Below, one piece after another: positions 3,842 through 64,000 of a DNA stretch of 64,000 nt. The notes under the pieces are model-generated. The model saw nothing but the letters and a program-made list of their open reading frames with translations, was not told where the DNA came from and searched no databases. Numbering within the stretch: the stretch's first letter is position 1; every line of letters begins with the position of its first letter. This DNA is from a phage, in the sequence record PX418213.1. One strand, given 5' to 3'. Both the position numbers and the translations under genes were made by a program.

Positions 3842-6628
3842 GTGTTCTCAATCCTACAAGGTCATGCAGGATTTCATCGCGATTTAGCCACAGGCAATTG
3901 GCGAGAAGTTAAAGCAGAAGACTATCTTTTTGCTAAAAGATTTTCCTCAAAGCATCCTGAAGGTAAACCAGCTTCAATGCCCTTCAAGTTTGATGTAATT
4001 GATGAAGTTGATCCTCAAACCCTAGTAGAAATGCTTCCTCTTATGAGACGTTTAACGTCTGACCCTCATATCGTTGCGGTACGAGGTCGATGTCTTGCAC
4101 CTAAAAATAATGTGCGACGTAAGAAGGGCAACTTTAATATATCTAACCCAAGTCATATAATTGCAATGGACGTGGATGGTATTGTAGATACAGGTGGTTG
4201 TAACAAGTTTGATCTTGTTGGCATGGCTCGACATATTATTAGAATGTTAAATAGTATTAGTGAGGATATGTTTCCTCTTGATGCAGGGTTTATTGCTCAT
4301 GCATCGTCTTCGGCTGGACTAAAACCAGGTATCCGAATGCACTTAATACTAGAATCTAATGTTAAAGTAACTCAGGGTCAAATCAAATTCTTATTTACAT
4401 CTATCAACGAAAGTAGTAGACAAAAGTATGGCTTTGATATTGCCGACTTAGCCTATTACTCTTCCGTACAGCTCCATTACTTTGCAGATCCGTTATTTAT
4501 CGATGGTATAGTAGATCCGTTTAAAGCGGAGGGTGCTTCACGTCTGGTATTTGTTAAGGGTTCTAAAGTAAATTTACCCAATAATCTGGTTGACTATGAA
4601 ACAACTAGGGGTGAGTTTAAAGAGGAGTTTTACTCTTTACTCGATCAAATTAAAGGTAAAAAAGCTGCCTCTGATAAAGTAGAGGAAACTATCAGCGAAC
4701 TAGAAGAAGCTGAGGATGGAGTGTATCTACGTATCATACCTAAACTCTATCACAGAGCTTTAGAGGATGGTGTTGACTTTGCATGGCTAGAAAAAGAAAT
4801 CCGTCCAGCCTTATCAGAGTATATTGCAACTAAAGATAATAGTCGTAATATTCAAGATTACTTTAATAACGGTCGTAAACAGGCTCTGAAAGCATTTGTT
4901 AATAATTCTAAACGTGATATACCGGATGTTTTAAAAGGTATTCCACTTAAAAAACTAGAAACTAATTCTCTAGAAACTGATAACTTCTTGAAATTAAATA
5001 CTGTACCACCAGAAGGTTATATGACTTTTGTAAAAGCAAGTCTAGGTACAGGTAAAACTACAGCGGTTGTGCGTTGGTTAGACTCAGGAGTTATTAAAGG
5101 TAATTTCTTAGCAATTACCAATACTAGAGCGCTAGTATCTTCAAATGCTAAGAAATTTAGTGCAGGACAATATGATAAGTCTGTAGATATGCTTAATTTT
5201 AAGCGTGGTGCTATTGACCGTATGTCCACAACTATTCACTCTTTGCATAAGTTCAAGAGTTTTATTGGTCAAATTGATGCAATCTTTATCGATGAATGTG
5301 ATGCTGTAATGAATGACCTATTATTCGCCCCGGTTGTTAAACAACGTCGTGAATGTATTCAGGTTCTTCGAGACATTCTTGCAACTGCAAAAATCATTAT
5401 ATTATCTGATGGGGATATTAGTGCAGAAACAATTGAAGCATATGGTTCTTTGATTGAGTTTGATAAACCGGTTGCATTTTATAATCATCACCGTAAAATG
5501 CTATCAAAAGCTCATGCTTATGAGTTCCCGGATGAATCCAGTATTTGGGTTGCACTTCAGACTTCTCTAGAGATGGGTGAGAAATCTATCCTAGTATCTG
5601 ACTGTGGGCCGGATGAACTGAATGAGAAGGGCATGGCATTACGTCGTAATACGGGTGCGTTAGTTAAGGAAATCCACTCAAACTCTACGTCTGATGTAGA
5701 TATTCGACGTATTCTGGATTACACAACTAATGAGCTAATTGATCAACAAATTGATTGCTTATTATGTAGTCCATCGGTAACAAGTGGTGTTGACTTTAAC
5801 TACTTTGATAACGTATTCGTTATTACTAGAACCTCAAACCAAGCGCCAAACATGCGTTTCCAAGCAATCAGGCGCGACCGTGGTGCTCAGAACATTTATT
5901 ATTTTATTGATAAATCTACGAGTGGGTTCTCCGCAGGTTCTGAGCAATATAACATTGATGAAGGTTGGCTGGAGTTAGCACAGCAATTATACGCACGTCG
6001 CAGGGAGCTGGAATCTAGAAACTATACTAGTACTCTACGTTATTACTTGCTTGATCAGGGTGCAACTATTGATATTTTCAGTGAAAGCTGGGGAAATATC
6101 GAAGGTGCAGGAAAAGAGTATACGGAAGAGCGAATCAAAGCTATTTTGTATTCAACTCCTGATTATTGTGCTCCACGCCATGCAGATGCGTATGAAGCTA
6201 AACTACTTCTTGTTCGCTATTACCATCTTGAGTCTATTAAAGATGTAACAGTTGAGCATGTTGAACAATATATCAAAGATAAACCGAATGATCGAGCTGC
6301 ATTCTTCCATAAGATGCACGAGATGTTCTGGGAAGATATTAAGAAGTGTTCAAATGTCACTATCAAACCCTTTATAGAAGCTCTGAAAGGTAAGAAGAAA
6401 GATTTCTTCCTTAAAACAGGTCAGAGTGCTAACCCAAAATATGCGAGAATGTATCTTGGTATGATGGGTATTGGCAAGGATATGAACACGGAGAATATTG
6501 TAGACTGGTACAGAACCTATTGTAAAATCGAGTGTATGCCAATCCCCCTAAAATTCATGACAGAGGAAGAGAAGGCCATGGCAGAAGAAGTAATGTCCGA
6601 ACTTGGAGCAACCAATGAAGATACATAA
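3842..6628 (+). CDS. large helicase-domain protein (possible replication initiator or origin-binding helicase)
   Basis: Walker A ASLGTGKTT and DExD-like box IFIDECDAV; start refined to in-frame GTG 3842 preceded by AGGAG at 7-nt spacing (ORF track starts at 3764). Confidence 0.5.
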   Translation: MFSILQGHAGFHRDLATGNWREVKAEDYLFAKRFSSKHPEGKPASMPFKFDVIDEVDPQTLVEMLPLMRRLTSDPHIVAVRGRCLAPKNNVRRKKGNFNISNPSHIIAMDVDGIVDTGGCNKFDLVGMARHIIRMLNSISEDMFPLDAGFIAHASSSAGLKPGIRMHLILESNVKVTQGQIKFLFTSINESSRQKYGFDIADLAYYSSVQLHYFADPLFIDGIVDPFKAEGASRLVFVKGSKVNLPNNLVDYETTRGEFKEEFYSLLDQIKGKKAASDKVEETISELEEAEDGVYLRIIPKLYHRALEDGVDFAWLEKEIRPALSEYIATKDNSRNIQDYFNNGRKQALKAFVNNSKRDIPDVLKGIPLKKLETNSLETDNFLKLNTVPPEGYMTFVKASLGTGKTTAVVRWLDSGVIKGNFLAITNTRALVSSNAKKFSAGQYDKSVDMLNFKRGAIDRMSTTIHSLHKFKSFIGQIDAIFIDECDAVMNDLLFAPVVKQRRECIQVLRDILATAKIIILSDGDISAETIEAYGSLIEFDKPVAFYNHHRKMLSKAHAYEFPDESSIWVALQTSLEMGEKSILVSDCGPDELNEKGMALRRNTGALVKEIHSNSTSDVDIRRILDYTTNELIDQQIDCLLCSPSVTSGVDFNYFDNVFVITRTSNQAPNMRFQAIRRDRGAQNIYYFIDKSTSGFSAGSEQYNIDEGWLELAQQLYARRRELESRNYTSTLRYYLLDQGATIDIFSESWGNIEGAGKEYTEERIKAILYSTPDYCAPRHADAYEAKLLLVRYYHLESIKDVTVEHVEQYIKDKPNDRAAFFHKMHEMFWEDIKKCSNVTIKPFIEALKGKKKDFFLKTGQSANPKYARMYLGMMGIGKDMNTENIVDWYRTYCKIECMPIPLKFMTEEEKAMAEEVMSELGATNEDT

Positions 6629-7133
6629 ACCAATGCCTCCTATGGCATTTATCCTGAAAAAGCTTAAGTATGATGAAAGTACTGGGGACTTAATTTGGTT
6701 ATCTGGCCCAAGGAAGGGAAGGGTAGCGGGCTCCAAAATGAAAACTGGGAGACAGTTAGAGTTTACTATAAAGGGAGAGCGGACAGCTTACTTAGCCCAT
6801 AGAATAATCTGGTTTATAAAAACAGGCGAAGATCCTGGGGATAAAACTATCGACCACAAAGACGGGGATAACTTAAACAACTTGTGGGATAATTTACGTA
6901 AGGCTACCTACTCCGAAAATGGAAAGAATAAGAAGTGTTCTACTAATTCTACCGGATTCACTGGAGTTGTAAAACGAGGTAATAGGTATATGGCCTACGC
7001 TTACTGTGATGGAAAGCAGCATATTTTTGGTAGACGAGATACCCCGGAAGAAGCCCATCAGCTATACCTTATGGGAGTTAAAGAACTGTTTGGTGAATTT
7101 AATCCCTCGGAGAGATATGACAGTGAAGAATAA
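6615..7133 (+). CDS. HNH homing endonuclease with AP2-type DNA-binding domain
   Basis: IDHKDGDNLNNLWDNLR (HNH His-Asn-Asn core) followed by GFTGVVKRGNRYMAYAY (AP2-like); ATG 6615 preceded by GGAG. Confidence 0.6.
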   Translation: MKIHKPMPPMAFILKKLKYDESTGDLIWLSGPRKGRVAGSKMKTGRQLEFTIKGERTAYLAHRIIWFIKTGEDPGDKTIDHKDGDNLNNLWDNLRKATYSENGKNKKCSTNSTGFTGVVKRGNRYMAYAYCDGKQHIFGRRDTPEEAHQLYLMGVKELFGEFNPSERYDSEE

Positions 7134-7350
7134 AAAATGGGAAACAAGGAAGTTCCCAGTAAAAGAACGTAAAGTTCCTGCTTACAACACTTCGGAAAAG
7201 CTATGTAGGGTGGTTCCTGCTAGACTAGCTGGCATCCCTAACATATCCGAGTGGTTACTTAAACAACGGAAAACAAACGTGTCTCTTCGCATCGGCTTTG
7301 AGTTAGATAAAGTCTATGCTGAACTTGCTTCTTTGCTCAAGGAATCGTAA
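7117..7350 (+). CDS. hypothetical small protein (about 77 aa)
   Basis: In-frame ATG 7117 preceded by GGAGAG; the ORF track version starts at 7006 inside the HNH gene. Confidence 0.35.
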   Translation: MTVKNKKWETRKFPVKERKVPAYNTSEKLCRVVPARLAGIPNISEWLLKQRKTNVSLRIGFELDKVYAELASLLKES

Positions 7351-7358
7351 AAATTTAT

Positions 7359-7387
7359 TTGCTTTCAGGAAAATTTTTCTGTATAAT
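7359..7387 (+). promoter_or_regulatory. strong sigma70 promoter, N25 type
   Basis: TTGCTT, 17 nt, TATAAT, AT-rich upstream, leader cataaatttgagagaggag then ATG 7419; the block 7350-7418 matches the canonical T5 N25 promoter as I recall it. Confidence 0.75.
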
Positions 7388-7418
7388 AGATTCATAAATT
7401 TGAGAGAGGAGTTTAAAT

Positions 7419-8123
7419 ATGGCTGGTTCTCGCAGAAAGAAACATATCCATGAAATCCCTGATGAAGTCTTTAAAAAGGTTATAGAGCATCTGGAGAACG
7501 GTGGTACTAAGAAAGCAGCATGTGAAATGCTCGGCGTATCATCCAATCCAACTATGGAAAGGATGATTGAGGAGTGGCAAGACCGCCAGATCCAAGTTGC
7601 CGAAATGAAGAAAAAGAAACGCGGCACACTTATTGAAGGCATTGAGTTAGCTAACGTTATTGAGCAGTATTTATCTGGTGATTCTTTCGAAGAAATTGCC
7701 GATCGTAATTACCGCTCTGTAGCAATGGTTAAATCTGTTCTGGAACGATATGGTGCTCTACTTCGTTTGAACGATATTGTAGATCCATTGAATCCTCCAA
7801 TTATTCCTGATGATGCTGTAGCAGAAGAATTTGCAGTTGGTGAGCTTGTTTGGGTTCCTGGATACCAGTGTATTGGTGAAATCAAAAAAGCAATGGATAA
7901 TCCTGTTGGTTGCTATCGTGTATGGCTTCTATCAGAAGGCAAACAACAGAACGTCCATTATATGAATTACGAGCTGGCTTCTGTTAAACATCTGGAAAAA
8001 TTAGGGGTTGACGTAAAATCTCTAGGGTACAAGTGGACTCGTGAAGAAGTAATTTCATTAATTAATGAAGCTGTTAAGGCTGCCTTGAAACTTGATAAAG
8101 AAAAAGGAAAACGCCGTGAGTAA
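7419..8123 (+). CDS. putative helix-turn-helix DNA-binding protein (234 aa)
   Basis: First gene downstream of the N25-type promoter; HTH-like segment TKKAACEMLGVSSNPTMERMI. Confidence 0.4.
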   Translation: MAGSRRKKHIHEIPDEVFKKVIEHLENGGTKKAACEMLGVSSNPTMERMIEEWQDRQIQVAEMKKKKRGTLIEGIELANVIEQYLSGDSFEEIADRNYRSVAMVKSVLERYGALLRLNDIVDPLNPPIIPDDAVAEEFAVGELVWVPGYQCIGEIKKAMDNPVGCYRVWLLSEGKQQNVHYMNYELASVKHLEKLGVDVKSLGYKWTREEVISLINEAVKAALKLDKEKGKRRE

Positions 8124-8367
8124 GCTAACAGATTTGCTTAAAGATGGGGAAGTAAAAACTCTGTATCGTAGAAGCTGGGATAATGATAATAATGGCTTAG
8201 TATTACTAACTCTAGATGCTGACTCAGATGTAGTTACCCAACATACCTGGGTAGCTGGTAATTATCCCTATAGTGAGGTTGTTACGTTAACAGTATGCGA
8301 AGCTATTGCCGACGATTGGGAGGTTGCCAGCATCGATGATATGCTCGCTGTTGGCCTGGTGGAGTAA
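8116..8367 (+). CDS. hypothetical protein (about 83 aa)
   Basis: In-frame GTG 8116 preceded by AAGGAA; ORF track starts at 8092. Confidence 0.35.
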   Translation: MSKLTDLLKDGEVKTLYRRSWDNDNNGLVLLTLDADSDVVTQHTWVAGNYPYSEVVTLTVCEAIADDWEVASIDDMLAVGLVE

Positions 8368-8384
8368 CTACAGAAAAATTTCAG

Positions 8385-8412
8385 TTGCTTAATCCTATAA
8401 TTCTTGATATAA
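8385..8412 (+). promoter_or_regulatory. sigma70 promoter
   Basis: TTGCTT, 16 nt, TATAAT, upstream of 8471. Confidence 0.5.
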
Positions 8413-8470
8413 TATTCTCATAGTTTGAAAGAACTATTCTGTTTAATTCTTAATTAAGGAAATATAAAAT

Positions 8471-8881
8471 ATGACTACTCCAACTCAGTGGACTGATGAA
8501 CTGTTCGAAAAAATGTCTTCCGAATACGTTGCTCGTATGGAGCAATTCCCAGAGGATGAACGTCCGGGTGTTAGCATGGAAATTGTTAGCGAAATTGCCC
8601 AGGAAAATGGTGTAACTCCGAACGGTTTTCGTATGAAGCTGACTAAAGCAGGTTTGTATATCAAGAAAGCTGCTGGCTCCGCTTCTAAATCTAGCGCATC
8701 TACTGGAGAAAAAGCTTCTGGTGGTTCTCGTACTTCCAAAGCCCAAGCTCATGCCGATCTTCGTTCAGCATTCTCTGATGCTGGCTTAGCACCAGATTTT
8801 CTGGATGATGCAATTATCGACAAACTGACCGGTAAAGCGGCTGCTCATCTGGCAGAAGCAATCCGAGCTATCACTAAGTAA
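8471..8881 (+). CDS. hypothetical early protein (136 aa)
   Basis: Own promoter and AAGGAA site; codon usage resembles highly expressed host genes (ctg, cgt, gct rich). Confidence 0.45.
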   Translation: MTTPTQWTDELFEKMSSEYVARMEQFPEDERPGVSMEIVSEIAQENGVTPNGFRMKLTKAGLYIKKAAGSASKSSASTGEKASGGSRTSKAQAHADLRSAFSDAGLAPDFLDDAIIDKLTGKAAAHLAEAIRAITK

Positions 8882-8917
8882 TTTTTAGATAAATCCACCA
8901 ACAAAAGGAACACAGTT

Positions 8918-9214
8918 ATGACCAAAGCTGAAATTATCGCACAATGTGAAAAATTTGGTGAGTTTTATCTTCATTACGAGAAACTTCGTCAGAAAGGAAC
9001 CACGTACCTTCAGGGTACGATGGAATTTGATCCAGCCCAAGATAAATATCTGGCTGAGCGTATTAAACGTGAACGTATTCGTAAAGCGAAAGATGATGAG
9101 ATCCTTGTCTTCTCTCGTACTAATGATAGCTTCCGTTTTATTCCTGTCGAGAAAGTCCGTCGTGTGACTAGCCTCCAATCAGAGTTAGATCGTGCTTCTC
9201 CAGTAGGCCGATAA
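8918..9214 (+). CDS. hypothetical protein (98 aa)
   Basis: ORF track; AAGGAA upstream; terminator downstream. Confidence 0.45.
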   Translation: MTKAEIIAQCEKFGEFYLHYEKLRQKGTTYLQGTMEFDPAQDKYLAERIKRERIRKAKDDEILVFSRTNDSFRFIPVEKVRRVTSLQSELDRASPVGR

Positions 9215-9264: not shown

Positions 9265-9573
9265 ATGAGCGAACAGGTAAATCAAAACTATGAAGGACAC
9301 GTTGATGACCAGTCCATCATACTCTGGGAGAAGGAGGGAGAACAAATAAGATTAACAGTATCTGAATTTCGTGGGAATCTATACATGGGTATTCGTTACT
9401 GGCTTCTTGATATTAATGATGAATGGTTTCCAACGAAATCTGGCTTCTCTTTTCCTTACACCCTAGAAACAACATCACAGCTTTTCTATGCGTTTACACA
9501 GATTCTTAGCGAATCTGAGGTTTTACATGAAGTACAGAAACGAGCTGAAGAACTCAAAGCCAAGAATGCCTAG
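9265..9573 (+). CDS. hypothetical protein (102 aa)
   Basis: ORF track; flanked by terminators. Confidence 0.45.
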   Translation: MSEQVNQNYEGHVDDQSIILWEKEGEQIRLTVSEFRGNLYMGIRYWLLDINDEWFPTKSGFSFPYTLETTSQLFYAFTQILSESEVLHEVQKRAEELKAKNA

Positions 9574-11106: not shown

Positions 11107-11886
11107 ATGAAAATCGAAATTCCAACACAATGTCCCTCTTGTGGTTCTAAGCTAGATCTTGTCAACGGACAATTATTCTGTCGGAATAAGTCCAACTGTC
11201 CAGCGCAATCAAGTAAGTTAATTGAGAACTTCTGTTCAAAAATGAAGTTAAAGGGCTTTGGCCCAAAAACTATTGAGAAGCTGGAGCTGACGAAGATTTC
11301 AGAACTATTTTACCTAACCGAAGAAGATTTGGTTAGAGCCGTGGGTAGCAAGGTTGCCGCTAAGTTAATTAGCGAATTAAATACTAAAGTTCGCGGAGAC
11401 ATTGACTTTGGTTCAGTTCTCGGTTCTTTAGGAATCCCTCTAATTGGAGAGGTTGCAGCAAAGAAATTATCCCAAAATTGCACTAGCTTCCACGATGTGA
11501 AGGCTGACGGCAAGGCTGGAGAAAACTATAAAGCCTGGCTAAATTCCCCACAAGGCAAGGATGTTATCGAACTACCGTGGAAATTCTCAACTGGTATTAA
11601 GGGCACTAAAGCTAATATTATCATTACGGATGAATTAGTTGCCCGGCCAAATGGAATCACGGTATGTATTACCGGATCTTTGCAAGATTTTGCAAATAGA
11701 ACGGATGCAACAAACTATTTAGAAAGTCTAGGATATACGGTTAAGAAATCCGTTACCAAAGACGTTAAATACCTAATCTGTGAGGATGAATCAAAACGTT
11801 CTTCCTCATCTTATAAGAAAGCCGAAACGAATGGGATAGAAATCCTGTCGATTAAAGAACTATTGGAGAAAAATAATAATGTCTAA
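11107..11886 (+). CDS. NAD-dependent DNA ligase, C-terminal ORF (Zn finger, HhH, BRCT-like)
   Basis: CPSCGSKLD...CRNKSNC zinc-finger pattern; BRCT-like ITGSLQDF segment; ATG 11107 preceded by AAGGAAGA. Confidence 0.6.
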   Translation: MKIEIPTQCPSCGSKLDLVNGQLFCRNKSNCPAQSSKLIENFCSKMKLKGFGPKTIEKLELTKISELFYLTEEDLVRAVGSKVAAKLISELNTKVRGDIDFGSVLGSLGIPLIGEVAAKKLSQNCTSFHDVKADGKAGENYKAWLNSPQGKDVIELPWKFSTGIKGTKANIIITDELVARPNGITVCITGSLQDFANRTDATNYLESLGYTVKKSVTKDVKYLICEDESKRSSSSYKKAETNGIEILSIKELLEKNNNV

Positions 11887-12646
11887 ACTGAACTGGAACG
11901 TAGAAGGTGTAACCGAGTCTCTGAAAGCAAAAGCCACTGCTCTGGGTGTTGCTGTAATCTCTCAAGAACAAGTAGCTGCTATCGCTGCTGAACTGGCCGC
12001 TGAAACTGGCAAAGATGTTACTGCTCGCTCTGTTGGCTCTAAACTGCGTAAAGAAGGTTTTGAAGTACAGAAAGCTAACGAAGTACAGAAATCCCCGTGG
12101 ACTCCTGAGCAGGAAGCTGAACTGGTTGATTTCCTGAACGCTCATGCTGGTCAGTATACCTATGCTGAGATCGCTGCTGCTGTAGCTGGTGGTCAGTTCG
12201 GTGCTAAACAGGTACAGGGTAAGATTCTGAGTCTGGAAATGACCGCTTCTGTTAAACCAACCGAAAAAGCTGCTGCTGTTCGTTCCTTCACTCCGGATGA
12301 AGAAACTGATTTTGTTAATCAGGTTGTTGCTGGTGCTACTATTGAAGCTATCGCTGCTCACTTCGGTCGCAATATTAAGCAGATCCGCGGTAAAGCTCTG
12401 AGTCTGCTTCGTGAAGGTCGTATCGCTGCTATGCCAGTACAGGAAACTTCAAGTGCTAAAACTCGTGAAGATCTGTTAGAAGGTCTGGATCTGGTTAACA
12501 TGACTGTTGCTGAGATCGCTGAGAAAACTGGTAAGTCTGAGCGCGGTGTTAAATCTATGCTGTCTCGTCGTGGTCTGGTTGCTAAGGACTATGATGGTGC
12601 CGCTAAGCGTGCTAAACTGGATGCAAAAGCTGCGGCTGCTGAATAA
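11879..12646 (+). CDS. putative DNA-binding protein with four tandem HTH-like repeats
   Basis: Four internal repeats of the form (T/Y)xAEIAxxxGxxxxxVxxKxLSL..G; host-optimal codon usage suggests high expression. Confidence 0.4.
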   Translation: MSKLNWNVEGVTESLKAKATALGVAVISQEQVAAIAAELAAETGKDVTARSVGSKLRKEGFEVQKANEVQKSPWTPEQEAELVDFLNAHAGQYTYAEIAAAVAGGQFGAKQVQGKILSLEMTASVKPTEKAAAVRSFTPDEETDFVNQVVAGATIEAIAAHFGRNIKQIRGKALSLLREGRIAAMPVQETSSAKTREDLLEGLDLVNMTVAEIAEKTGKSERGVKSMLSRRGLVAKDYDGAAKRAKLDAKAAAAE

Positions 12647-55760: not shown

Positions 55761-57446
55761 TTATGCGAAAAACTTACCGTTTTTAAAGTCAATCAAAGTG
55801 CGCTGGCCGTTCGCATAGGTAATTAAATGCGTTTGCGTCCAGCTTGACGCGCCAACGTTATAGCCCATATCTAGGGAACCAGCAACGCCCGCCGTATATA
55901 CGCCGCCGTAAATGCTGGCGGTGTGAGTGTGCCCCGTGTTTAACTTGCCCAATTTCTTAAACTGCTTAGGATTGCCACGGCTGCCGTTTATGCCGTTGTG
56001 ACCGTGTACGCCGCATTCAATGCCTGCAATCTTGAAAGATTGATCAGTCGTTAGGAAAATCGCGTTAAACTCGCAACCTGCGACGGTACGCAGCGCATAA
56101 TCTAGCACGTTGAAAGTATCATCCTGCCTTGCAATAGCTGCATAGATAGCGGCATTCAGGCGGTGATATAATTCCGCGTTTGCTGGATCGTCTTTAATGT
56201 TAGCATTGCGATCATCAAGCCAACGGGATAGCGCCAGATCGTGGTTTGATTCCACAATGATTGTTTGACTAAAATCACGTTCCATTGATTCCAGCACGCG
56301 CCCGGTATCGATGAGATCATCCAGAACCTTATCACGTCCGGCTGCATACTGTTTCGCTAGAAATACACCAGAAGCGCGGTTATGGTGGTTGCGCGATGTA
56401 AAATCATGCACGTCATGCACAAATTGATATTTTGGCTTGAGAATATCCACTAGCCCATAAGTATCACCGTGCCCCCATGACGCTGCGGCGCACTCCTCAT
56501 CAAGTTTTTCGGCGTGTATGTCGCCATATTGCAAGCCTAAAACATGCCCCGACGTTTCAAAGCATCCGGTGGGAGTAGCGCAAACGTTCAGATCGTAAAA
56601 CATGCCGCTTTCGTCCATCGTTTCAAGCTGGCGCACAAAAAACTCACCGTCTTCGTCGAACTCAACAATCAGCGCACCGAAATTATGCAATGCTTCCGCT
56701 TTCTGTCCTGCTTTCTGCTGAATGTAGTTTTTAAGCGTTGCCGTTCCGGTGGAATACATGCGGCGCACTACTTCACCTTTGAGAGCTGGCACGCTTTCGG
56801 CGGTGATTTTAGCGTGACCAATTGCCAGACCTTCCAGATTAAGCGCGGTTGCAGTTTCTGCGAATCCAGACAGCGGATAGTCTGCGGTGGGCAAAACATT
56901 AATTTCAGCCATGAAAGCGAAACGGCGGTTATTTAAAAACACGTTTTTACTGCAAATATATTTATCAAACGCGGAATCATATTTGATTCCGTCTGCGCCT
57001 TCCCCATTCTGGAATCCGTTTTTATTATAAATATACTTGCTAACCAGCAAATCAGCGCCGATAAATTGGGCGTATTGCTCCAACGCGGCTAAAAAGTTTT
57101 TATGCGGGAAAGTATTATTTTGAATCGACGTTAGAATAAAGCGTTTACCTTGTTTTACTTCCCACTGTTCCACCGTGCTAGAAATAATTCCAGCCGCTTC
57201 GGGGCGCTCGTCGTTTTTAATGGCTTTTGCTACTTTCGCCGCTTTTGGTTTCGCTGGTTTATTTGCTTCCAGCCAATCACAAATCGCGGTGGAGTGTTTT
57301 GCAGTATCGTAAACCGCTTTCGAAATATCGTCACAAACTTCCAGCTTGGTGGCGCGCAGACGTTTACCATAGAAATTAAAGTCAGCGGCCAGCTTCAGGA
57401 TAACGGTTTGCTTTTCTGCGGAAATAATCATAGTAATAAGCTCCAT
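55761..57446 (-). CDS. A1: A1-like pre-early protein with metallophosphoesterase domain
   Basis: 561 aa; calcineurin-like motifs YGDIH, ESNHD, GHxH-like GHTH; adjacent to an A2-like gene. Confidence 0.55.
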   Translation of the reverse strand: MELITMIISAEKQTVILKLAADFNFYGKRLRATKLEVCDDISKAVYDTAKHSTAICDWLEANKPAKPKAAKVAKAIKNDERPEAAGIISSTVEQWEVKQGKRFILTSIQNNTFPHKNFLAALEQYAQFIGADLLVSKYIYNKNGFQNGEGADGIKYDSAFDKYICSKNVFLNNRRFAFMAEINVLPTADYPLSGFAETATALNLEGLAIGHAKITAESVPALKGEVVRRMYSTGTATLKNYIQQKAGQKAEALHNFGALIVEFDEDGEFFVRQLETMDESGMFYDLNVCATPTGCFETSGHVLGLQYGDIHAEKLDEECAAASWGHGDTYGLVDILKPKYQFVHDVHDFTSRNHHNRASGVFLAKQYAAGRDKVLDDLIDTGRVLESMERDFSQTIIVESNHDLALSRWLDDRNANIKDDPANAELYHRLNAAIYAAIARQDDTFNVLDYALRTVAGCEFNAIFLTTDQSFKIAGIECGVHGHNGINGSRGNPKQFKKLGKLNTGHTHTASIYGGVYTAGVAGSLDMGYNVGASSWTQTHLITYANGQRTLIDFKNGKFFA

Positions 57447-57782: not shown

Positions 57783-58190
57783 TTATTCACCTGCGGCTTG
57801 TTTTACCTCATCGGCAACGCCTAACAACTGCGCCACGGCGTCCAGCGTTTCCAGCTTCGCGCTTTCAAGGCTTGCCAGATCATCGGCGTCCTTGATAATG
57901 CCGGAATCGATAGCGTGTTTTGCAATTACTCGCACATAGTGAGCTTTACGGATTGAGCTGCCGCCGCCAACCTTGCGCGGCTTGTCGCTTTTTTGGTAGG
58001 CTTTCGCGCTGGTCAATTTCGAACGAACTGACACGGGAGAAGCCGCACCAACTGCTTTCGCGATCTCTTTCAAGCCGTCGCTATTTGCGAATTCTAGCCC
58101 GTTTTCATTGATTAACTGCTGATACATGGAAACAGCCTGCTGGGTGTTTTCTTCGTTCCAGGAAAATTTTGCGGCTTTAACGTTAGTCAT
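57783..58190 (-). CDS. A2: A2-like pre-early DNA-binding protein (135 aa)
   Basis: Size and position immediately upstream of the A1-like gene; basic C-terminal half. Confidence 0.45.
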   Translation of the reverse strand: MTNVKAAKFSWNEENTQQAVSMYQQLINENGLEFANSDGLKEIAKAVGAASPVSVRSKLTSAKAYQKSDKPRKVGGGSSIRKAHYVRVIAKHAIDSGIIKDADDLASLESAKLETLDAVAQLLGVADEVKQAAGE

Positions 58191-58290: not shown

Positions 58291-58542
58291 TTATAAAACG
58301 GCTTCCCATTTTTCGTTGCGTTGAACAACCTTTACAACGTCGCCGGATTTAACGCGAACGTTATAAATCGGCTTGCCGTTGTTACTGCGCTCATTTTCAG
58401 CGTATACCGCGTCGATTGTATCGAACGGCATGAGCGCCGCGCCTTTAATACGTTCGGCTTTTCCGGTCAATTCATCCGTTTTAGTAACGAAAGGAATAAA
58501 AACGGATTGACCAACTTTCGGCGCATTAATAACGTTTTTCAT
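58291..58542 (-). CDS. hypothetical small protein (83 aa)
   Basis: ORF track; first gene of the minus-strand pre-early-like unit. Confidence 0.4.
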   Translation of the reverse strand: MKNVINAPKVGQSVFIPFVTKTDELTGKAERIKGAALMPFDTIDAVYAENERSNNGKPIYNVRVKSGDVVKVVQRNEKWEAVL

Positions 58543-58774
58543 GGTATAAACTCCAAGTTATTTGTGGATTGTTCCGCATTATCTGCTACTTTCTAGCAGA
58601 CAATAAGAAAAAATCCGCTAGCCATTATAAAATCAATTTAAGGAACTCCACGCGGGCCGCTATATCCCAGTTAGGGGGCGGGATGCATTATGGTAAGCAC
58701 CGACCGTCAGATTTTATCAAGTTATCGCTCTTATCGAACTGGGTACATCTTAAAGCCTATCGGCTAGGGTGTCA

Positions 58775-58948
58775 AATAGTTTTTTCGTTTTCTTTTAAGT
58801 TAGGATCTTCCCAACTGAATAGCATTTCGCAAAATATTTTCCCATCTTTATGATGGTAAGCTATTTCACTTCCGTGGTTAGCACAAAAATTAATCACCGC
58901 TTCAGCTTGTTCTACCGTGATATTGTTAGCCGTTTCTTTGATTTTCAT
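58775..58948 (-). CDS. hypothetical small protein (57 aa, absent from the ORF track)
   Basis: ATG at 58948 preceded by AAGGAA at 8-nt spacing; translation MKIKETANNITVEQAEAVINFCANHGSEIAYHHKDGKIFCEMLFSWEDPNLKENEKTI. Confidence 0.3.
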
Positions 58949-59373
58949 ATCGTCGATTCCTTATAATGTAATAAGTTTACCGCCGATAGGCTTTAAGATA
59001 TACCCAATTTTTAAAGAGCGCGGCGGTAAACTTCCCGCCGTGTAGTTCGTCATTGCCGCCCTACGAGATAAATAATAACAAACAACGAAAAAGGCGCAAC
59101 CTTATATTTGTAAAGAAATGTAAAGACAAACGCCACCGGACACCGTGCGGCGACCTGGGCGCAGCGCATTAAAATTAAAAGAAACGGGCGCGCGAATAAC
59201 ACAAAACATAGCAGATAGGCAAGTAATTTTTTCACTTATATTTGCTTTGGGGGTATTGACAAAATCTAAAAAGCTCGTGGCAGCGATAAACGACGTGGCC
59301 CCTTATGATTGGATGGCCAAAAACTTTATTGCGTTCTGGGGCGTTTTAGGCGCATTCTAGCCTTGTTGATAAC

Positions 59374-59834
59374 TTATCCACAGAAGCAAAAATGAAATTT
59401 TCCTAGTTATCCACTTGACTTTTATTTTCCAGTGGATAACTACTTATTTTATGAAATAAATTAATTGACTTTTATTTGCTAGTATGCATCGGAAAGATAG
59501 CAGACTAATAATTGCTAGGATGATGATCATGCTGGTGGATTGTAACGGCCTGAATTATTAGCAGACTGTTAATCAGGGAAAATCTCATTAGCCAACTAAC
59601 TATTTCATGATATATAATATACTTATAAATTAATGAGAAATAATAACTATAAGAAATCATCATCATTATAATAATAACTATAAGAAATCATCATCATTAT
59701 AATAATAACTATAAGAAACTATCGGCATAAGTGAGAACCACTATCATTTAAGTTATCCACAACGTTATCCACAGCACAAAATAATTTGACACGATAGGCG
59801 GCGATATGAGGGCTTTTACACAGACTTATCCACA
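59374..59834. promoter_or_regulatory. cluster of DnaA-box-like 9-mers in an AT-rich intergenic region
   Basis: TTATCCACA at 59374, 59744, 59755, 59826; TTATCCACT / AGTGGATAA inverted pair at 59407 and 59431. Confidence 0.55.
59640..59727. repeat. tandem direct repeat, 31-bp unit, about 2.6 copies
   Basis: ataataactataagaaatcatcatcattata repeated with period 31. Confidence 0.7.
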
Positions 59835-59860
59835 GGTTATCCTACTGTATAAATATACAG
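59821..59860. repeat. left arm of a 40-bp inverted repeat containing a DnaA box
   Basis: cagacttatccacaggttatcctactgtataaatatacag; reverse complement of 63118-63157 with one mismatch. Confidence 0.7.
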
Positions 59861-59956
59861 GGTAAAAAGGCAGTGTTAACGACTGCAATCAATTTTAGGC
59901 GGCCTAAAACGCTTTCTAACGAGCTAAACGCTGCGGGGTAATATTAAAGTAAAGAC

Positions 59957-60003
59957 CCAACACGTCGCCCTGATGGCTTCAGTGCGTCGCCCTGGTGGCT
60001 TCG
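59957..60003. repeat. tandem direct repeat, about 22-bp unit, two copies
   Basis: cgtcgccctgatggcttc / cgtcgccctggtggcttc. Confidence 0.5.
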
Positions 60004-60149
60004 CCGTGTTTTGCTCGTTACTACACCGCTGCGCGGTTAGCATAAAATTAGGCGTTAGGCAAGAAAAATAAAAAAGTAAAATAATCTTTGCCTATGCTAG
60101 AAAATTACCTTTATCATTCACTCACCGATTAACGAGAGGGGCCGAACAA

Positions 60150-61136
60150 ATGAGGCTATATAAACCAGATAACGCAACCGTCTTAAAAGGTGCGCTGCGT
60201 AACCTGCTGGACGGTAGCAGAACAACCAGCATTAAGCATTTTGTTTTCAATATTGAAACTATTCATCAAAACTTTTTTGATGATTATGATGCTTATAATA
60301 TGAATAGTTTTCTACCGTTATATAAGCAAGGGGCAACGCTTGTTTTATATAATCAGGATTATCAATTACTTACTAGTCGGGGGCCGGATACTGATTTCAT
60401 AATAGTAAAAGGCAACACAGTAAAAGCCTATGATACTGGGGCGGGCCTAGAAGTTTTTTCAATAGAAAACTATGAGGCCAATGATAATGATCTTTATGAC
60501 GTAGAAAATTTTCTCGATTCATTTTGGCGTTATTTATCAGTTGGCTGGAATCGGTCGGATTCTGATGGGTATCGTTTTGCGGCTATAATGGCCTTTGATG
60601 ATAACGGTAATTTTTTGCTACCGTCGGAGTTATATAATCGGGTATATGAAGGCGATATTGTTGACGCCGGATTTTCTTTCGAAAGGGAAGAAAGTATTGG
60701 CAATATAGAAAAACATGTTGTAAATTCTAACACTAAAAACGTTCACACTCAAACTACTGAAAACAAAGGAAAAAATACCATGACCAAGATTGCTAACATC
60801 GTTGCCGCTAATAAATCCGCCGTTGTAAACGCTGCAAAACTGGAAGCGGGTAAAATTGCACTAACTCAAATCACGAAAGTAGCGGCTAAAAAAGCACCGT
60901 TCATGATCAGAGGCTATATTGATACGCCGATTGGTCGCGTAGTGATCGCTAACCTGCTGAGTGTAGCGGTTGACCAGTACGCCCCGAGTAACCAGAAAGC
61001 GAAAGCGGTAGCAAGCGCGGCAATGGAAGCGGCTATGTTAGAAATGGTGCAATCTTTTAACATCGCTGAGATGATCGATGAAATGGTAAAAGGTATCGAT
61101 ATTTCTACTTTTACCAATAACACCGAAAACGAGTAA
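60150..61136 (+). CDS. hypothetical protein (328 aa; possibly two fused domains or genes)
   Basis: ORF track; internal ATG at about 60780 preceded by AAGGAAAA starts an Ala/Val-rich C-terminal part. Confidence 0.4.
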   Translation: MRLYKPDNATVLKGALRNLLDGSRTTSIKHFVFNIETIHQNFFDDYDAYNMNSFLPLYKQGATLVLYNQDYQLLTSRGPDTDFIIVKGNTVKAYDTGAGLEVFSIENYEANDNDLYDVENFLDSFWRYLSVGWNRSDSDGYRFAAIMAFDDNGNFLLPSELYNRVYEGDIVDAGFSFEREESIGNIEKHVVNSNTKNVHTQTTENKGKNTMTKIANIVAANKSAVVNAAKLEAGKIALTQITKVAAKKAPFMIRGYIDTPIGRVVIANLLSVAVDQYAPSNQKAKAVASAAMEAAMLEMVQSFNIAEMIDEMVKGIDISTFTNNTENE

Positions 61137-61253
61137 TAAATAATCTAATGTAAAGTTTTGTAAAGGTCGCCTTTTATGGTGGCCTTTTTTGTTATAATGC
61201 CTTTACACCGTTCGAGGACGGTTGAAATTTTCCCAAAATTTTGGAGGCTTAAA

Positions 61254-61484
61254 ATGGTTGCTTTTTCTTCTGCTAGTCATCTTTTCACTGGAAAAGGCTG
61301 GGTATCAAATCGCTGGATCATTCAAGAAATGGTGCAAGAGTACGGCATCGCTAAAACTTATACTACCATACAGGCGCTTTATGATAATGATCAGATTGAT
61401 CAGCAAACGGCGGGCTTTTTACTGGATACCCTGAAGGCGGAGCACTGTACCAAAAAACAAGCGGCCAAAATTATTTTAATGTAA
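61254..61484 (+). CDS. hypothetical small protein (76 aa)
   Basis: ATG 61254 preceded by GGAGG; ORF track start 61176 overlaps the upstream intergenic region. Confidence 0.35.
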   Translation: MVAFSSASHLFTGKGWVSNRWIIQEMVQEYGIAKTYTTIQALYDNDQIDQQTAGFLLDTLKAEHCTKKQAAKIILM

Positions 61485-61492
61485 TCAATAAC

Positions 61493-61511
61493 GGGGGATA
61501 TAATATCCCCC
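61493..61511. other. perfect palindromic hairpin
   Basis: gggggatataatatccccc. Confidence 0.4.
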
Positions 61512-61533
61512 ACTAACTAGGGGAGTATTACAA

Positions 61534-61713
61534 ATGGTTATTTTTCGAGCTTTTTTAGCGGGTATCTTGGGCGCTATTCTTACTCTTTTTGCTACCGCTT
61601 ACGGTATCCAAGATTATTGCGGCTTAGTAGTCACAAAACCTATGGTTACTATTGGCGCGGGTATCGCTGTATTTTCTTATCTGCTGGGCTGCATGACTAG
61701 TAAAGGAGAATAA
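61534..61713 (+). CDS. small membrane protein (59 aa, absent from the ORF track)
   Basis: ATG preceded by GGGGAG; two hydrophobic segments (FLAGILGAILTLFATAY and VTIGAGIAVFSYLLG). Confidence 0.3.
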   Translation: MVIFRAFLAGILGAILTLFATAYGIQDYCGLVVTKPMVTIGAGIAVFSYLLGCMTSKGE

Positions 61714-61715
61714 AA

Positions 61716-61928
61716 ATGATCCGCAACGTTTCTCTTGCACGTTCGAAAGGCTTTGCGCTGGTGGATGCTAACACGTTCGAGCGTCCTGATTGTAAAATTG
61801 AATATGTAGCACGTAATAAAAATGCCTTTCGTGTTACTGAAAAGAAATTCGACAAGCGCGGCAACGTGATCCTTGAAACGGTCAGGCACTTTGCCACCTT
61901 TTACGCTGCGTTTCGTGGGGTACTATGA
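61716..61928 (+). CDS. hypothetical small protein (70 aa)
   Basis: ATG preceded by AAAGGAG. Confidence 0.45.
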   Translation: MIRNVSLARSKGFALVDANTFERPDCKIEYVARNKNAFRVTEKKFDKRGNVILETVRHFATFYAAFRGVL

Positions 61929-62056
61929 AAAGCGTTATTGTTGTTCTCCTTGCAATGGCTGGCGGTTTTATCGCCACCTTATTTAGGAATGACCCCGTTT
62001 CGCTGGGGATCTTTATGCTTTTATCTGGATACCTGATCGGGAGGTTATGCAAATGA
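61925..62056 (+). CDS. small membrane protein (43 aa, absent from the ORF track)
   Basis: ATGA overlap with the previous stop; hydrophobic MKSVIVVLLAMAGGFIATLF. Confidence 0.3.
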   Translation: MKSVIVVLLAMAGGFIATLFRNDPVSLGIFMLLSGYLIGRLCK

Positions 62057-62397
62057 TCATTTACGAGGGCAATCGTTTTGTTGCTAACTGCCGCCCGGCA
62101 TTGTTAGCAAACTATTTAAACCAGCTTTCGCCAGCTTATAAGGGCGTTATTAATATTTATGAGGGCAAGGCGCATTATAAAATCAATGCGGTCGTTGCCC
62201 GTGAACTAGCGTTTCAATTTTTAACCTTCGCATCTTGCGACGTTCAGGTAATGGGTGAGGCATTAATCGCAGAAAATGAGGATGATTTTATTAATATTTT
62301 TCGCAAGATATGCACCGAGCGCCTGATAATGAAAGGCGCGTATATTCAATCCACGGCTGATAGTATTGAAACAGCGTTTCGAAAGGTGGCGCAATGA
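62047..62397 (+). CDS. hypothetical protein (116 aa)
   Basis: ORF track; overlapping start and stop with neighbours. Confidence 0.4.
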   Translation: MQMIIYEGNRFVANCRPALLANYLNQLSPAYKGVINIYEGKAHYKINAVVARELAFQFLTFASCDVQVMGEALIAENEDDFINIFRKICTERLIMKGAYIQSTADSIETAFRKVAQ

Positions 62398-62609
62398 GTG
62401 AAATTACTTGGAATATGTTGCTGAAGGTTAAACGGGTAAAATTAACGCAGGATTTATGGGGAGTAGGTAAAACTGGGGATGTATTCACTGTGTTTAAAGA
62501 CGCCCATCATAGGTTTATAAGAAGGAATAACAATACCGGTACAGCGTTTTATTTAATTGATTTAATCAAATTACATGGTGAGGATATTTTCAAACTAGAA
62601 TATGAGTAA
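62394..62609 (+). CDS. hypothetical protein (71 aa)
   Basis: ORF track; ATGA overlap with the previous gene. Confidence 0.4.
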   Translation: MSEITWNMLLKVKRVKLTQDLWGVGKTGDVFTVFKDAHHRFIRRNNNTGTAFYLIDLIKLHGEDIFKLEYE

Positions 62610-62664
62610 CTATATAATTTTGGCGTATTGCAATGAGATAGCCAACTAATAACGGAGCGTTATT

Positions 62665-62859
62665 ATGAGCAATAAAATTGTTGTAACCAAAACTACTACG
62701 ATGGTAGACGTTTTTTACGTGCCCAATACGCCGGAGAATCGACAAGCGGTTGAGCGTGGGGAATATGATAAAGTGATCTATGATCACGATGGTTATTATC
62801 AGTATTTGGTGGATTCATACGGGGAGGAGGAAAAGATCACGCATCAACTACCTGACTAA
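62665..62859 (+). CDS. hypothetical protein (64 aa)
   Basis: ORF track; last gene of the plus-strand cassette. Confidence 0.4.
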   Translation: MSNKIVVTKTTTMVDVFYVPNTPENRQAVERGEYDKVIYDHDGYYQYLVDSYGEEEKITHQLPD

Positions 62860-63117
62860 TAATCACGGGGCGCAACTATCCGGGAGTGCCCCCAATTTTC
62901 AAACGATAATCATTCTCATTTGACCGCGCTCGCGATGGTTAGCCTGCTAATGGTTCGGGTGTTACGTGTCGCCTTGTGTGATCGTTAGCGTGCTAACTAA
63001 TTTTCAAGCCTCCTCCAATTTTGCCCTTGTTTTAGTATCTCCACCAAAATAAAACGCGTTAGAATGCGTTTGAGAGCGTTTTAGCGGTATATTAGAATTA
63101 TTCACTACATAGGAATA

Positions 63118-63157
63118 CTGTATATTTATACAGTAGGATAAGCTGTGGATAAGTCTG
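63118..63157. repeat. right arm of the 40-bp inverted repeat, with DnaA-box-like sites
   Basis: ctgtatatttatacagtaggataagctgtggataagtctg; further TGTGGATAA at 63207-63215. Confidence 0.7.
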
Positions 63158-63250
63158 TTAATAACGCCTCAAAATGGCTAGGATTCTGTCAAGTCAAATC
63201 GTGCTGTTAATAAGTCTGTGGATAACTTAAATAACAGTGTTTCTCACTTC

Positions 63251-63500
63251 CGTTCTTAAATGAGAATCATTATCATTTGCATTTCACTATCTAACTAATA
63301 ATCATTCCACTTTTTAAATGAGAATCGTTCCACTTCCTGAATAATTTTCGTTCCACTTTCTAAATGATAATCGTTATCATTTGCATTCCTCTTTCTAAAT
63401 GCGAATCATTCCACTTCTTAAATGAGAATCGTTTCACTTTTTAAATGAGAATTATTATCATTCTCATTCCGCTTTTTAAATGAGAATGATTCTTATTATC
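63251..63500. repeat. array of about seven direct repeats with a Fur-box-like palindromic core
   Basis: TTAAATGAGAATC(A/G)TT(A/C/T) units, for example 63256-63274 and 63360-63378; each matches the Fur consensus GATAATGATAATCATTATC at about 15 of 19 positions; an isolated copy at 62905-62920. Confidence 0.6.
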
Positions 63501-63510
63501 ATTCGTATTT

Positions 63511-63534
63511 AGCGCAGGGCAATTGCCCTGCGCT
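63511..63534. other. perfect 24-bp palindrome
   Basis: agcgcagggcaattgccctgcgct followed by TTTT; possible terminator or dimeric protein site. Confidence 0.5.
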
Positions 63535-63537
63535 TTT

Positions 63538-63760
63538 GTGCAAATCCGACATTGCTCCACGGGTGTTACGTGCGGGCGTGTATGTGCGAATCCGACAATT
63601 TTTGGTAGTGTGCAAATCCGACTCGAAAAATTTTTATAGTGTGCAAATCCGACAATGAATTTTTCTAGAAACTCCAGCAATCTCGAACTGCGCATCAATC
63701 CTGTGGAGTATGTGCAAATCCGACATGGTTTTTCTAGGATTAAGATGTGCGAATCCGACA
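63538..63760. repeat. six dispersed direct repeats of a 14-bp motif GTGC(A/G)AATCCGAC(A/T)
   Basis: Copies at 63538, 63584, 63609, 63641, 63712, 63747, spaced 25-71 bp, all in the same orientation. Confidence 0.7.
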
Positions 63761-64000
63761 AGATTTTTGTGACTTCGATGAGAGGGTGTGTGATTGTGTG
63801 AGTTTGAGGAGAAGTTGAGAGAGCGAGTGAAACTTGGGGGAACTGCGAGAGGGGCGCATGTTTGGTGCAGGGCACCTGATTTGCGGGGATTTTGGGGAAG
63901 AGTTGAGAAGATTTGGGTTAATTTGAGATTAGGGGAGATAAAGTAAAATTTTATTAGCAAAATGGGGCAAAATAGCTTGACAAGTGAAAATTTCTGTGGC

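Follow-up and report, generated by a model that had tools for sequence, protein, structure and literature searches.

The question raised by the locus considered here is what a pair of inverted repeats does around a block of phage genes. The locus lies in a 64,000-nucleotide (nt) stretch of phage DNA (sequence record PX418213.1; the whole stretch is hereafter called the window), in which a gene cassette stands between two inverted-repeat arms carrying DnaA boxes, and a sequence-only reading had proposed that the segment is invertible or mobilisable, or that the arms are paired operators that loop it. Comparison with related phages revealed that the element is the already-described T5 IRC-spacer-IRD / IRD'-spacer-IRC' inverted repeat, and the bracket itself is not new. 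Taking the evidence together, we consider it probable that this T5 element carries putative sites for the host proteins DnaA and LexA in its arms, that the right arm is the functional one, and that the inversions of the segment between the arms are passive. How T5 DNA injection stops once 8% of the genome has entered has been an open question since the 1960s, and to our knowledge no experiment has yet defined the cis-acting stop signal. Two points described below, the reading of the inner end of each arm as a LexA operator and the dispensable left arm, are modest, testable additions to this injection-pause question.

The T5 inverted repeat and the array within each arm

The sequence-only reading had described 40-nt arms that each contain a DnaA box, and both details were confirmed. 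The stretch 59821-59860 and the reverse complement of 63118-63157 are identical at 39 of 40 positions, with the sole mismatch at 59836 (G vs C), and TTATCCACA occurs at 59826-59834 (+) and at 63144-63152 (-). These 40-nt arms are the inner ends of a longer inverted repeat of 132 nt (59729-59860 / 63118-63249), identical at 103 of 132 positions, and an extra patch of 18 nt (89% complementary) was detected within the cassette (59904-59921 / 63067-63084). Among the exact separated inverted repeats of the window, the longest measures 24 nt, compared with 14-16 nt in 15 shuffles, and the inverted repeat is far above chance.

The window comes from a T5-like phage, and the region belongs to its terminal repeat. 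It is 88-94% identical to many T5-like phages, and the matching region in Salmonella phage Spc35 lies inside the annotated left terminal repeat, namely the first-step-transfer (FST) DNA. With the A2 protein as an anchor, 40 loci (~28 genomes, T5 included) were retrieved from IMG/VR, and both arms occupy the same place in each of the 39 related loci of sufficient extent. A check for absence of the arms from T5 located them there at the homologous place (T5 loci L021 and L018 of IMG/VR). On T5, the arms were mapped to 6098-6228 (left) and 9411-9542 (right). The two arms of the window are the following:

59729-59860, left arm, corresponding to T5 Repeat Region 2 (IRC-spacer-IRD); 83% identical to its T5 counterpart (L021)
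63118-63249, right arm, corresponding to T5 Repeat Region 3 (IRD'-spacer-IRC'), candidate injection stop signal; 92% identical to its T5 counterpart

For T5, a 131-bp inverted repeat has been described, with IRC-spacer-IRD at 6022-6152 and IRD'-spacer-IRC' at 9332-9462 (Davison, bioRxiv 10.1101/866236), in a definition that includes a 52-bp spacer between IRC and IRD and in an account that builds on Heusterspreute 1987 and Wang 2005. The same study reports eight DnaA or variant boxes, always paired 3 bp apart and conserved in 25 T5-like phages, together with poorly conserved open reading frames (ORFs) between the repeat copies and a variable inter-copy distance, and it proposes that DnaA on the boxes anchors the DNA to the membrane and provides the injection stop signal. 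It also places the T5 shear point at ~9618, about 76 bp beyond the right arm as mapped here. The element of the window is like T5 IRC/IRD in its locus, its length (131-132 nt), its 3-bp-spaced DnaA box pairs and the rightward pre-early operon (T5.011-017) that it flanks; eight boxes are present in this phage and seven in T5, the HNH gene between Repeat Regions 1 and 2 is missing in this phage, and nothing essential differs. The inner 40-bp arms correspond to the IRD and IRD' ends of the T5 element, with arm length and box-pair spacing matching T5 and with the exact IRC/IRD boundaries not stated in Davison's text.

The internal features of the arms are listed below, with conservation values here and hereafter taken from 66 arms of 33 genomes, and with approximate bit scores from a LexA matrix of 25 E. 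coli operators:

59753-59773 (+), DnaA box pair 1-2, TTATCCACA, 3 bp, TTATCCACA; conservation 0.94 and 0.87
59814-59834 (+), DnaA box pair 3-4, TTTTACACA, 3 bp, TTATCCACA; conservation 0.85 and 0.95
59843-59862, inner-end palindrome of the left arm, TACTGTATAAATATACAGGG, CTGT-N8-ACAG; 23.4 bits
63116-63135, inner-end palindrome of the right arm, TACTGTATATTTATACAGTA, CTGT-N8-ACAG; 26.2 bits, best site in the window
63144-63164 (-), right-arm DnaA box pair, consensus TTATCCACA and variant TTATTAACA, the variant being read from the sequence and fitting Davison's DnaA* class
63205-63225 (-), right-arm DnaA box pair, variant TTATTAACA and consensus TTATCCACA

The eight boxes, two pairs per arm, start at 59753/59765, 59814/59826, 63144/63156 and 63205/63217, with 3 bp within pairs and a pair-to-pair spacing of 61 bp in either arm, and the variant TTATTAACA is the inner-side box in both right-arm pairs. 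Seven of the 11 consensus DnaA boxes of the window fall within 59374-59834 and 63144-63225. Between the box pairs, at 59786-59791 and at the mirrored right-arm position, a TTGACA hexamer was found that is the only part of the arm above the palindrome in conservation (0.97 vs 0.96), and a promoter search found no -10 element at a suitable distance from it. Each arm thus reads as a fixed array of two predicted DnaA box pairs, with TTGACA between them and an inner end that resembles a near-consensus LexA operator.

The palindromes exceed the median of the training operators of the LexA matrix (20.2 bits, maximum 24.7), the third-best site in the window reaches 16.8 bits, and the best of 30 shuffles gave 17.5 bits. 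The right palindrome TACTGTATATTTATACAGTA matches 19 of 20 positions of the LexA consensus, and the half-site CTGTAT is an exact LexA half-site. With a conservation of 0.96, against 0.73 in the spacer and 0.69 in the sequence just inside the cassette, the inner 18-20 bp, which read as a near-consensus LexA operator, are among the most conserved arm parts across the five genera examined. The same 19-mer is present in more than 100 unrelated viral contigs, lying directly upstream of DinI-family genes at 19 loci and upstream of genes for PHROG 450 small proteins, which show weaker similarity to an anti-repressor family, at 21 loci; both surroundings are typical SOS-controlled contexts, and a LexA operator likewise stands upstream of the tum anti-repressor gene of phage 186. 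Compared with the LexA operators of Enterobacteria and temperate phages, the two putative sites share CTGT-N8-ACAG, an AT-rich centre, scores on a par with the top E. coli operators and the identical 19-mer found upstream of DinI-family genes in other phages, whereas they belong to a strictly virulent phage, form a pair ~3.3 kb apart, are fused to DnaA boxes and show no evident promoter overlap. Davison's text makes no mention of LexA or SOS, and no link between LexA and T5 was found in the literature searched, which did not include the 1987, 2005 and 2015 papers, where an earlier mention is possible. Neither the interpretation of the palindrome as LexA-like nor the inversion history described below was found in the literature searched; the former means that the most conserved parts of the module include a putative near-consensus LexA operator and not DnaA boxes alone, providing a second testable host candidate.

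The palindrome also outlasts the rest of the arm. A palindrome pair brackets a segment of 3.3-4.2 kb in the phages My1, AAS21 and Sealy and in Proteus phage PM135, in the last of which A1 is 43% identical to T5 A1 and no long arm repeat was detectable by BLAST. The palindrome is kept in genera where A1 has diverged to 43-74% identity with T5 A1, suggesting that whatever binds it evolves slowly, as a host protein would. The repeat detected in My1, AAS21 and Sealy reaches ~70-85 bp inward of the palindrome and ~35 bp outward, opposite to T5 and the window, which implies that the palindrome is the fixed point while the arms shift. The inverted repeats of this set were mapped as follows:

L042, 7821-7957 / 11721-11857, inverted repeat
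L043, 8141-8261 / 12107-12227, inverted repeat
L045, 6087-6211 / 9390-9513 (flipped coordinates), inverted repeat

As a separate observation, the centre of the palindrome (59845-59860, 63118-63133) is AA or TT in almost all T5-like arms (L002-L041). The choice between the two is apparently independent in close relatives; the window and T5, for instance, have different right-arm centres. Neither AT nor TA was seen as an intermediate, and TA is common (23 cases) in the unrelated viral contigs with the same flanks. The AA/TT centre could be explained by template switching at the palindrome, flipping the centre in concert, or by selection that favours three consecutive A or T.

Orientation and inversion history of the cassette

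A search of related genomes for the cassette in both orientations, as the sequence-only reading had suggested, gave a divided outcome: close relatives share one orientation, and the Klebsiella phages of the Sugarland type and Pectobacterium phage My1 carry the mirrored one. In all 36 Tequintavirus-type IMG/VR loci with detectable arms, the cassette is opposite in strand to A1/A2; the Sugarland type differs. The T5.011 homologue of the Klebsiella phages of this type (L039, L040, Sealy) and of My1 shares the strand of A1/A2 and adjoins the right arm. The order of gene families between the arms is A+ L+ C+ M+ in Pantoea phage AAS21 and M- C- L- A- in Sealy and IME260, and it is E- C- A- in My1. 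The block in My1 and the Sugarland-type phages is an exact mirror image.

The history of these changes was examined with a neighbour-joining tree (500 bootstraps) of homology-selected A1 proteins, in which support was obtained from bipartition counts. The split between {Tequintavirus + Sugarland type} and {AAS21, My1, PM135} received 100% support, and the phages with inverted orientation were never monophyletic in the bootstrap trees, indicating that the orientation changed at least twice. The block has therefore been inverted at least two times in the evolution of Demerecviridae. Left-type and right-type spacers stay distinct within genomes, suggesting that exchange between arms is rare and probably confined to the near-identical inner 40 bp. 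The flips are probably the product of passive homologous recombination between these 40-bp sequences, possibly between co-infecting phages. Flip-flop inversion in plastid genomes and herpesvirus segments likewise yields both orientations with no dedicated invertase; here, in contrast, the arms are short (132 nt, 40 of them near-identical) and the orientations are fixed by genus instead of occurring as isomers among close relatives. Gene content between the arms also turns over among phages, and the repeated inversion and this turnover together show the reshuffling of a host-takeover cassette in Demerecviridae.

Proposed role of the arms and competing explanations

In the proposed mechanism, the arms would be cis-acting sites for host proteins that are already in the cell as the DNA enters, namely DnaA and, as proposed here, LexA. 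The right arm, which adjoins the DNA-transfer pause point, would form the functionally important copy together with the repeat field next to it, and both are probably part of an injection-stop or holding complex; the left arm would be a second copy that the phage can do without. The repeat field in question is as follows:

63250-63768, non-coding repeat field beyond the right arm; AT-rich TAAATGAGAATC-type repeats, then at least five GTGCAAATCCGACA repeats

Within this field, the TAAATGAGAATC-type repeats occupy 63257-63504 and the GTGCAAATCCGACA repeats 63536-63768, with a perfect GC-rich hairpin, GCGCAGGGCAATTGCCCTGCGC, between them at ~63512-63535. These right-side repeats resemble iterons and match Davison's DRE and DRD, and the field is a candidate for the rest of the injection-stop region.

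Evidence on the left arm comes from a viable T5 mutant, forming smaller plaques, from which hegG through 017 have been removed (Annor et al., bioRxiv 10.64898/2026.04.02.716235). Mapping of the published deletion primers onto T5 placed the deletion at ~5394-9160, where the left arm and the cassette are gone and the right arm is kept. By this mapping the left arm is dispensable (the repeats are not discussed by Annor et al.), and pairing of the arms is thus not essential, which argues against models that need both copies and directs experiments to the right arm.

Several points weigh against the reading that we favour. The bit scores of the LexA matrix are approximate. The only promoter-like sequence overlapping a palindrome is a weak leftward match, TTAACA-16-TATATT (59879-59852), at the left one, with none at the right, and the cassette promoter lies ~230 bp from the left palindrome. 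T5-like phages grow on recA1 hosts, the T5-like phage ESCO40 being recorded with the recA1 strain DH5a as its host, so that RecA-dependent cleavage of LexA is not required; LexA cleavage as a timer of second-step transfer was ruled out on this ground. Moreover, how a cytoplasmic DNA-binding protein stops DNA entry is not obvious, the paper on BF23 notes a lack of experiments on what these sites do, and the count of inversions comes from a single-gene tree (A1). Finally, the smaller plaques of the multiple-deletion T5 mutant (bioRxiv 10.64898/2026.04.02.716235) suggest that the left arm or the cassette may contribute.

The main rival is recognition of the palindrome by a phage protein, in which case it would be the site of an A2 dimer or a cleavage site of A1/A2 and its likeness to an SOS box would be coincidence or mimicry. 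A2 is an essential DNA-binding dimer that is needed for second-step transfer and associates with A1, and the lack of a strong promoter overlapping either palindrome is unusual for a LexA operator. Against this, the palindrome is nearly constant while A2 and A1 diverge strongly, with 65% identity for Sugarland-type A2 and 43% for the A1 of PM135, CTGTAT is an exact LexA half-site in palindromes whose scores equal or exceed those of real operators, and unrelated phages carry the same 19-mer upstream of DinI-type genes. Furthermore, first-step transfer of T5 stops without phage protein synthesis, so the stop factor must pre-exist in the cell. Davison's proposal that FST DNA is cleaved near this region, in a restriction-enzyme model, also speaks for a phage protein, and with all of this considered we regard the phage-protein explanation as rather unlikely. 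An extension of the host-protein reading, in which LexA and DnaA are architectural factors of a virulent phage family that pause the genome at the FST edge and in which the second module makes the cassette prone to recombination, flippable and exchangeable, seems to us distinctly unlikely.

The looping proposed by the sequence-only reading would make the arms paired operators, bridged for example by DnaA oligomers, that loop the 3.3-kb cassette for transcription control or for the stop 'knot' of Davison. Both arms keep the same internal architecture in nearly all relatives, and Davison puts both in one complex and cites a second FST band near the left-arm position. However, the T5 mutant without the left arm and cassette is viable, the inter-arm distance ranges from ~1.6 to 4.1 kb among relatives, Davison's Type 4 phages reportedly lack IRC and IRD, and the cassette flips without loss of viability, making such a loop decidedly improbable.

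The clusters of DnaA boxes and the AT-rich and iteron-like repeats to the right of the right arm could also be taken for a DnaA-dependent replication origin, given that eight boxes adjoin the AT-rich repeats at 63257-63504 and at least five GTGCAAATCCGACA repeats in a layout resembling oriC and plasmid origins. Closely spaced consensus DnaA boxes beside AT-rich repeats are indeed shared with oriC-type clusters, but here they form two inverted modules 3.3 kb apart in DNA without replication genes; T5 origins have been mapped elsewhere, near the genome centre, with the replication genes off the FST DNA (Davison, bioRxiv 10.1101/866236), and an origin at this place is very unlikely.

The weakest explanation is a programmed switch of the Hin/Gin type or a mobile element with terminal inverted repeats. 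It accords with the inverted repeats around a gene block, with both orientations occurring in the family and with the 2-bp asymmetric centre of the palindrome (AA or TT); the bracketing of genes by inverted repeats and the 2-bp asymmetric core are shared with Hin/Gin/Cin switches. A synthetic flipped junction, in which the left flank and left arm run into the cassette's right end in reverse complement, served as a query against 50,697 phage records; 536 of them matched, and not one covered at least 80% of the query in a single place. No recombinase or transposase was found in or beside the cassette, PHROG and Pfam searches of the eight cassette proteins returned none of these families, and the distinct left and right spacers show that the arms are not homogenised by frequent exchange. 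Hin/Gin/Cin switches differ further in having a serine recombinase gene and an enhancer, neither of which was identified here, and no orientation polymorphism was seen among the 536 relatives. A transposable element was rejected as well, since there is no transposase, the outer flanks (...ATCGGCAT and CCGTTCTT...) are unrelated with no target-site duplication, and the locus is the same in every relative. The switch or mobile element is thereby largely refuted and retains almost no probability: of the two proposals, invertibility holds on the evolutionary scale, as the mirror-image relatives and the at least two changes in the A1 tree indicate, and fails as a programmed switch, and mobilisation of the segment finds no support.

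Cassette genes, promoter and outer repeats

The description of the cassette itself in the sequence-only reading was borne out: eight ORFs on the plus strand fill 60150-62859, on the strand opposite to A1 and A2. These genes, the cassette promoter and the neighbouring pre-early genes are as follows:

60088-60117 (+), probable cassette promoter TTGCCT-18-TATCAT, preceded by an A-rich tract; sequence identical in T5
60150-61136 (+), first cassette gene, T5.011 homologue, 328 amino acids (aa), DUF7566 (PF24450, E 8e-111); orientation marker
61254-61484 (+), 76-aa gene, phrog_5145, no function assigned
61534-61713 (+), gene for a 59-aa hydrophobic protein, phrog_5607
61716-61928 (+), 70-aa gene of the T5.015 type, phrog_4227, E 2e-48
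61925-62056 (+), gene for a 43-aa hydrophobic protein, phrog_19184
62047-62397 (+), 116-aa gene, phrog_4379; second marker, mirrored in Sugarland-type phages
62394-62609 (+), 71-aa ORF without a match in PHROG and Pfam searches; variable gene
62665-62859 (+), 64-aa gene, last of the cassette, phrog_6973
55761-57446 (-), leftward pre-early gene A1; 96% identity to T5 A1
57783-58190 (-), leftward pre-early gene A2; anchor for relatives; Spc35 annotation

By the Spc35 annotation, the genes beside the cassette are A2, A1 and small ORFs. The 328-aa DUF7566 protein, encoded by the first gene past the left arm, is 75% identical to its T5 counterpart. The family matched by the 70-aa gene (T5.015 type) is annotated as a nicking endonuclease that acts at abasic sites produced by host Ung (PMC8201957). 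The 71-aa ORF at 62394-62609 was found in only one other genome among the IMG/VR loci (L015/L019) and is an example of gene turnover within the cassette.

The promoter predicted at 60088-60117 agrees with the T5 promoter upstream of gene 011, which has been mapped experimentally. The left palindrome was ruled out as an operator of this promoter, TTGCCT-18-TATCAT lying ~230 bp further in. A 65-nt exact match to the classical strong T5 promoter P_N25 was located at 7349-7413, far from the terminal repeat, and P_N25 was thus ruled out as the cassette promoter. Between the left arm and the cassette promoter, the motif CGTCGCCCTG(A/G)TGGCTTC is present twice, 22 bp apart (59963-60002), with one copy at the same place in T5. 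An Rfam search of 58500-64000 for structured RNA yielded no hit that reached the gathering score.

Several records that bear Listeria or Campylobacter phage labels also match the region at ~90% identity (e.g., OR847365, 3.4 kb), and these are probably mislabelled or contaminant.

On the outer side of the left arm, a second repeat field was identified:

59358-59731, repeat field beyond the left arm, equivalent to T5 Repeat Region 1; contiguous, with no inserted HNH gene

Additional DnaA boxes lie in this field at 59374-59440, and a tandem array of three AT-rich 31-bp units (AATAATAACTATAAGAAATCATCATCATTAT) at 59639-59731 abuts the left arm on its outside. Further out, a second inverted repeat of 39 nt (58726-58764 / 58982-59020; 85% complementary, 217 nt apart) flanks a small leftward ORF at 58772-58948, and this repeat (58726-59020) may correspond to IRA/IRA' of T5 Repeat Region 1.

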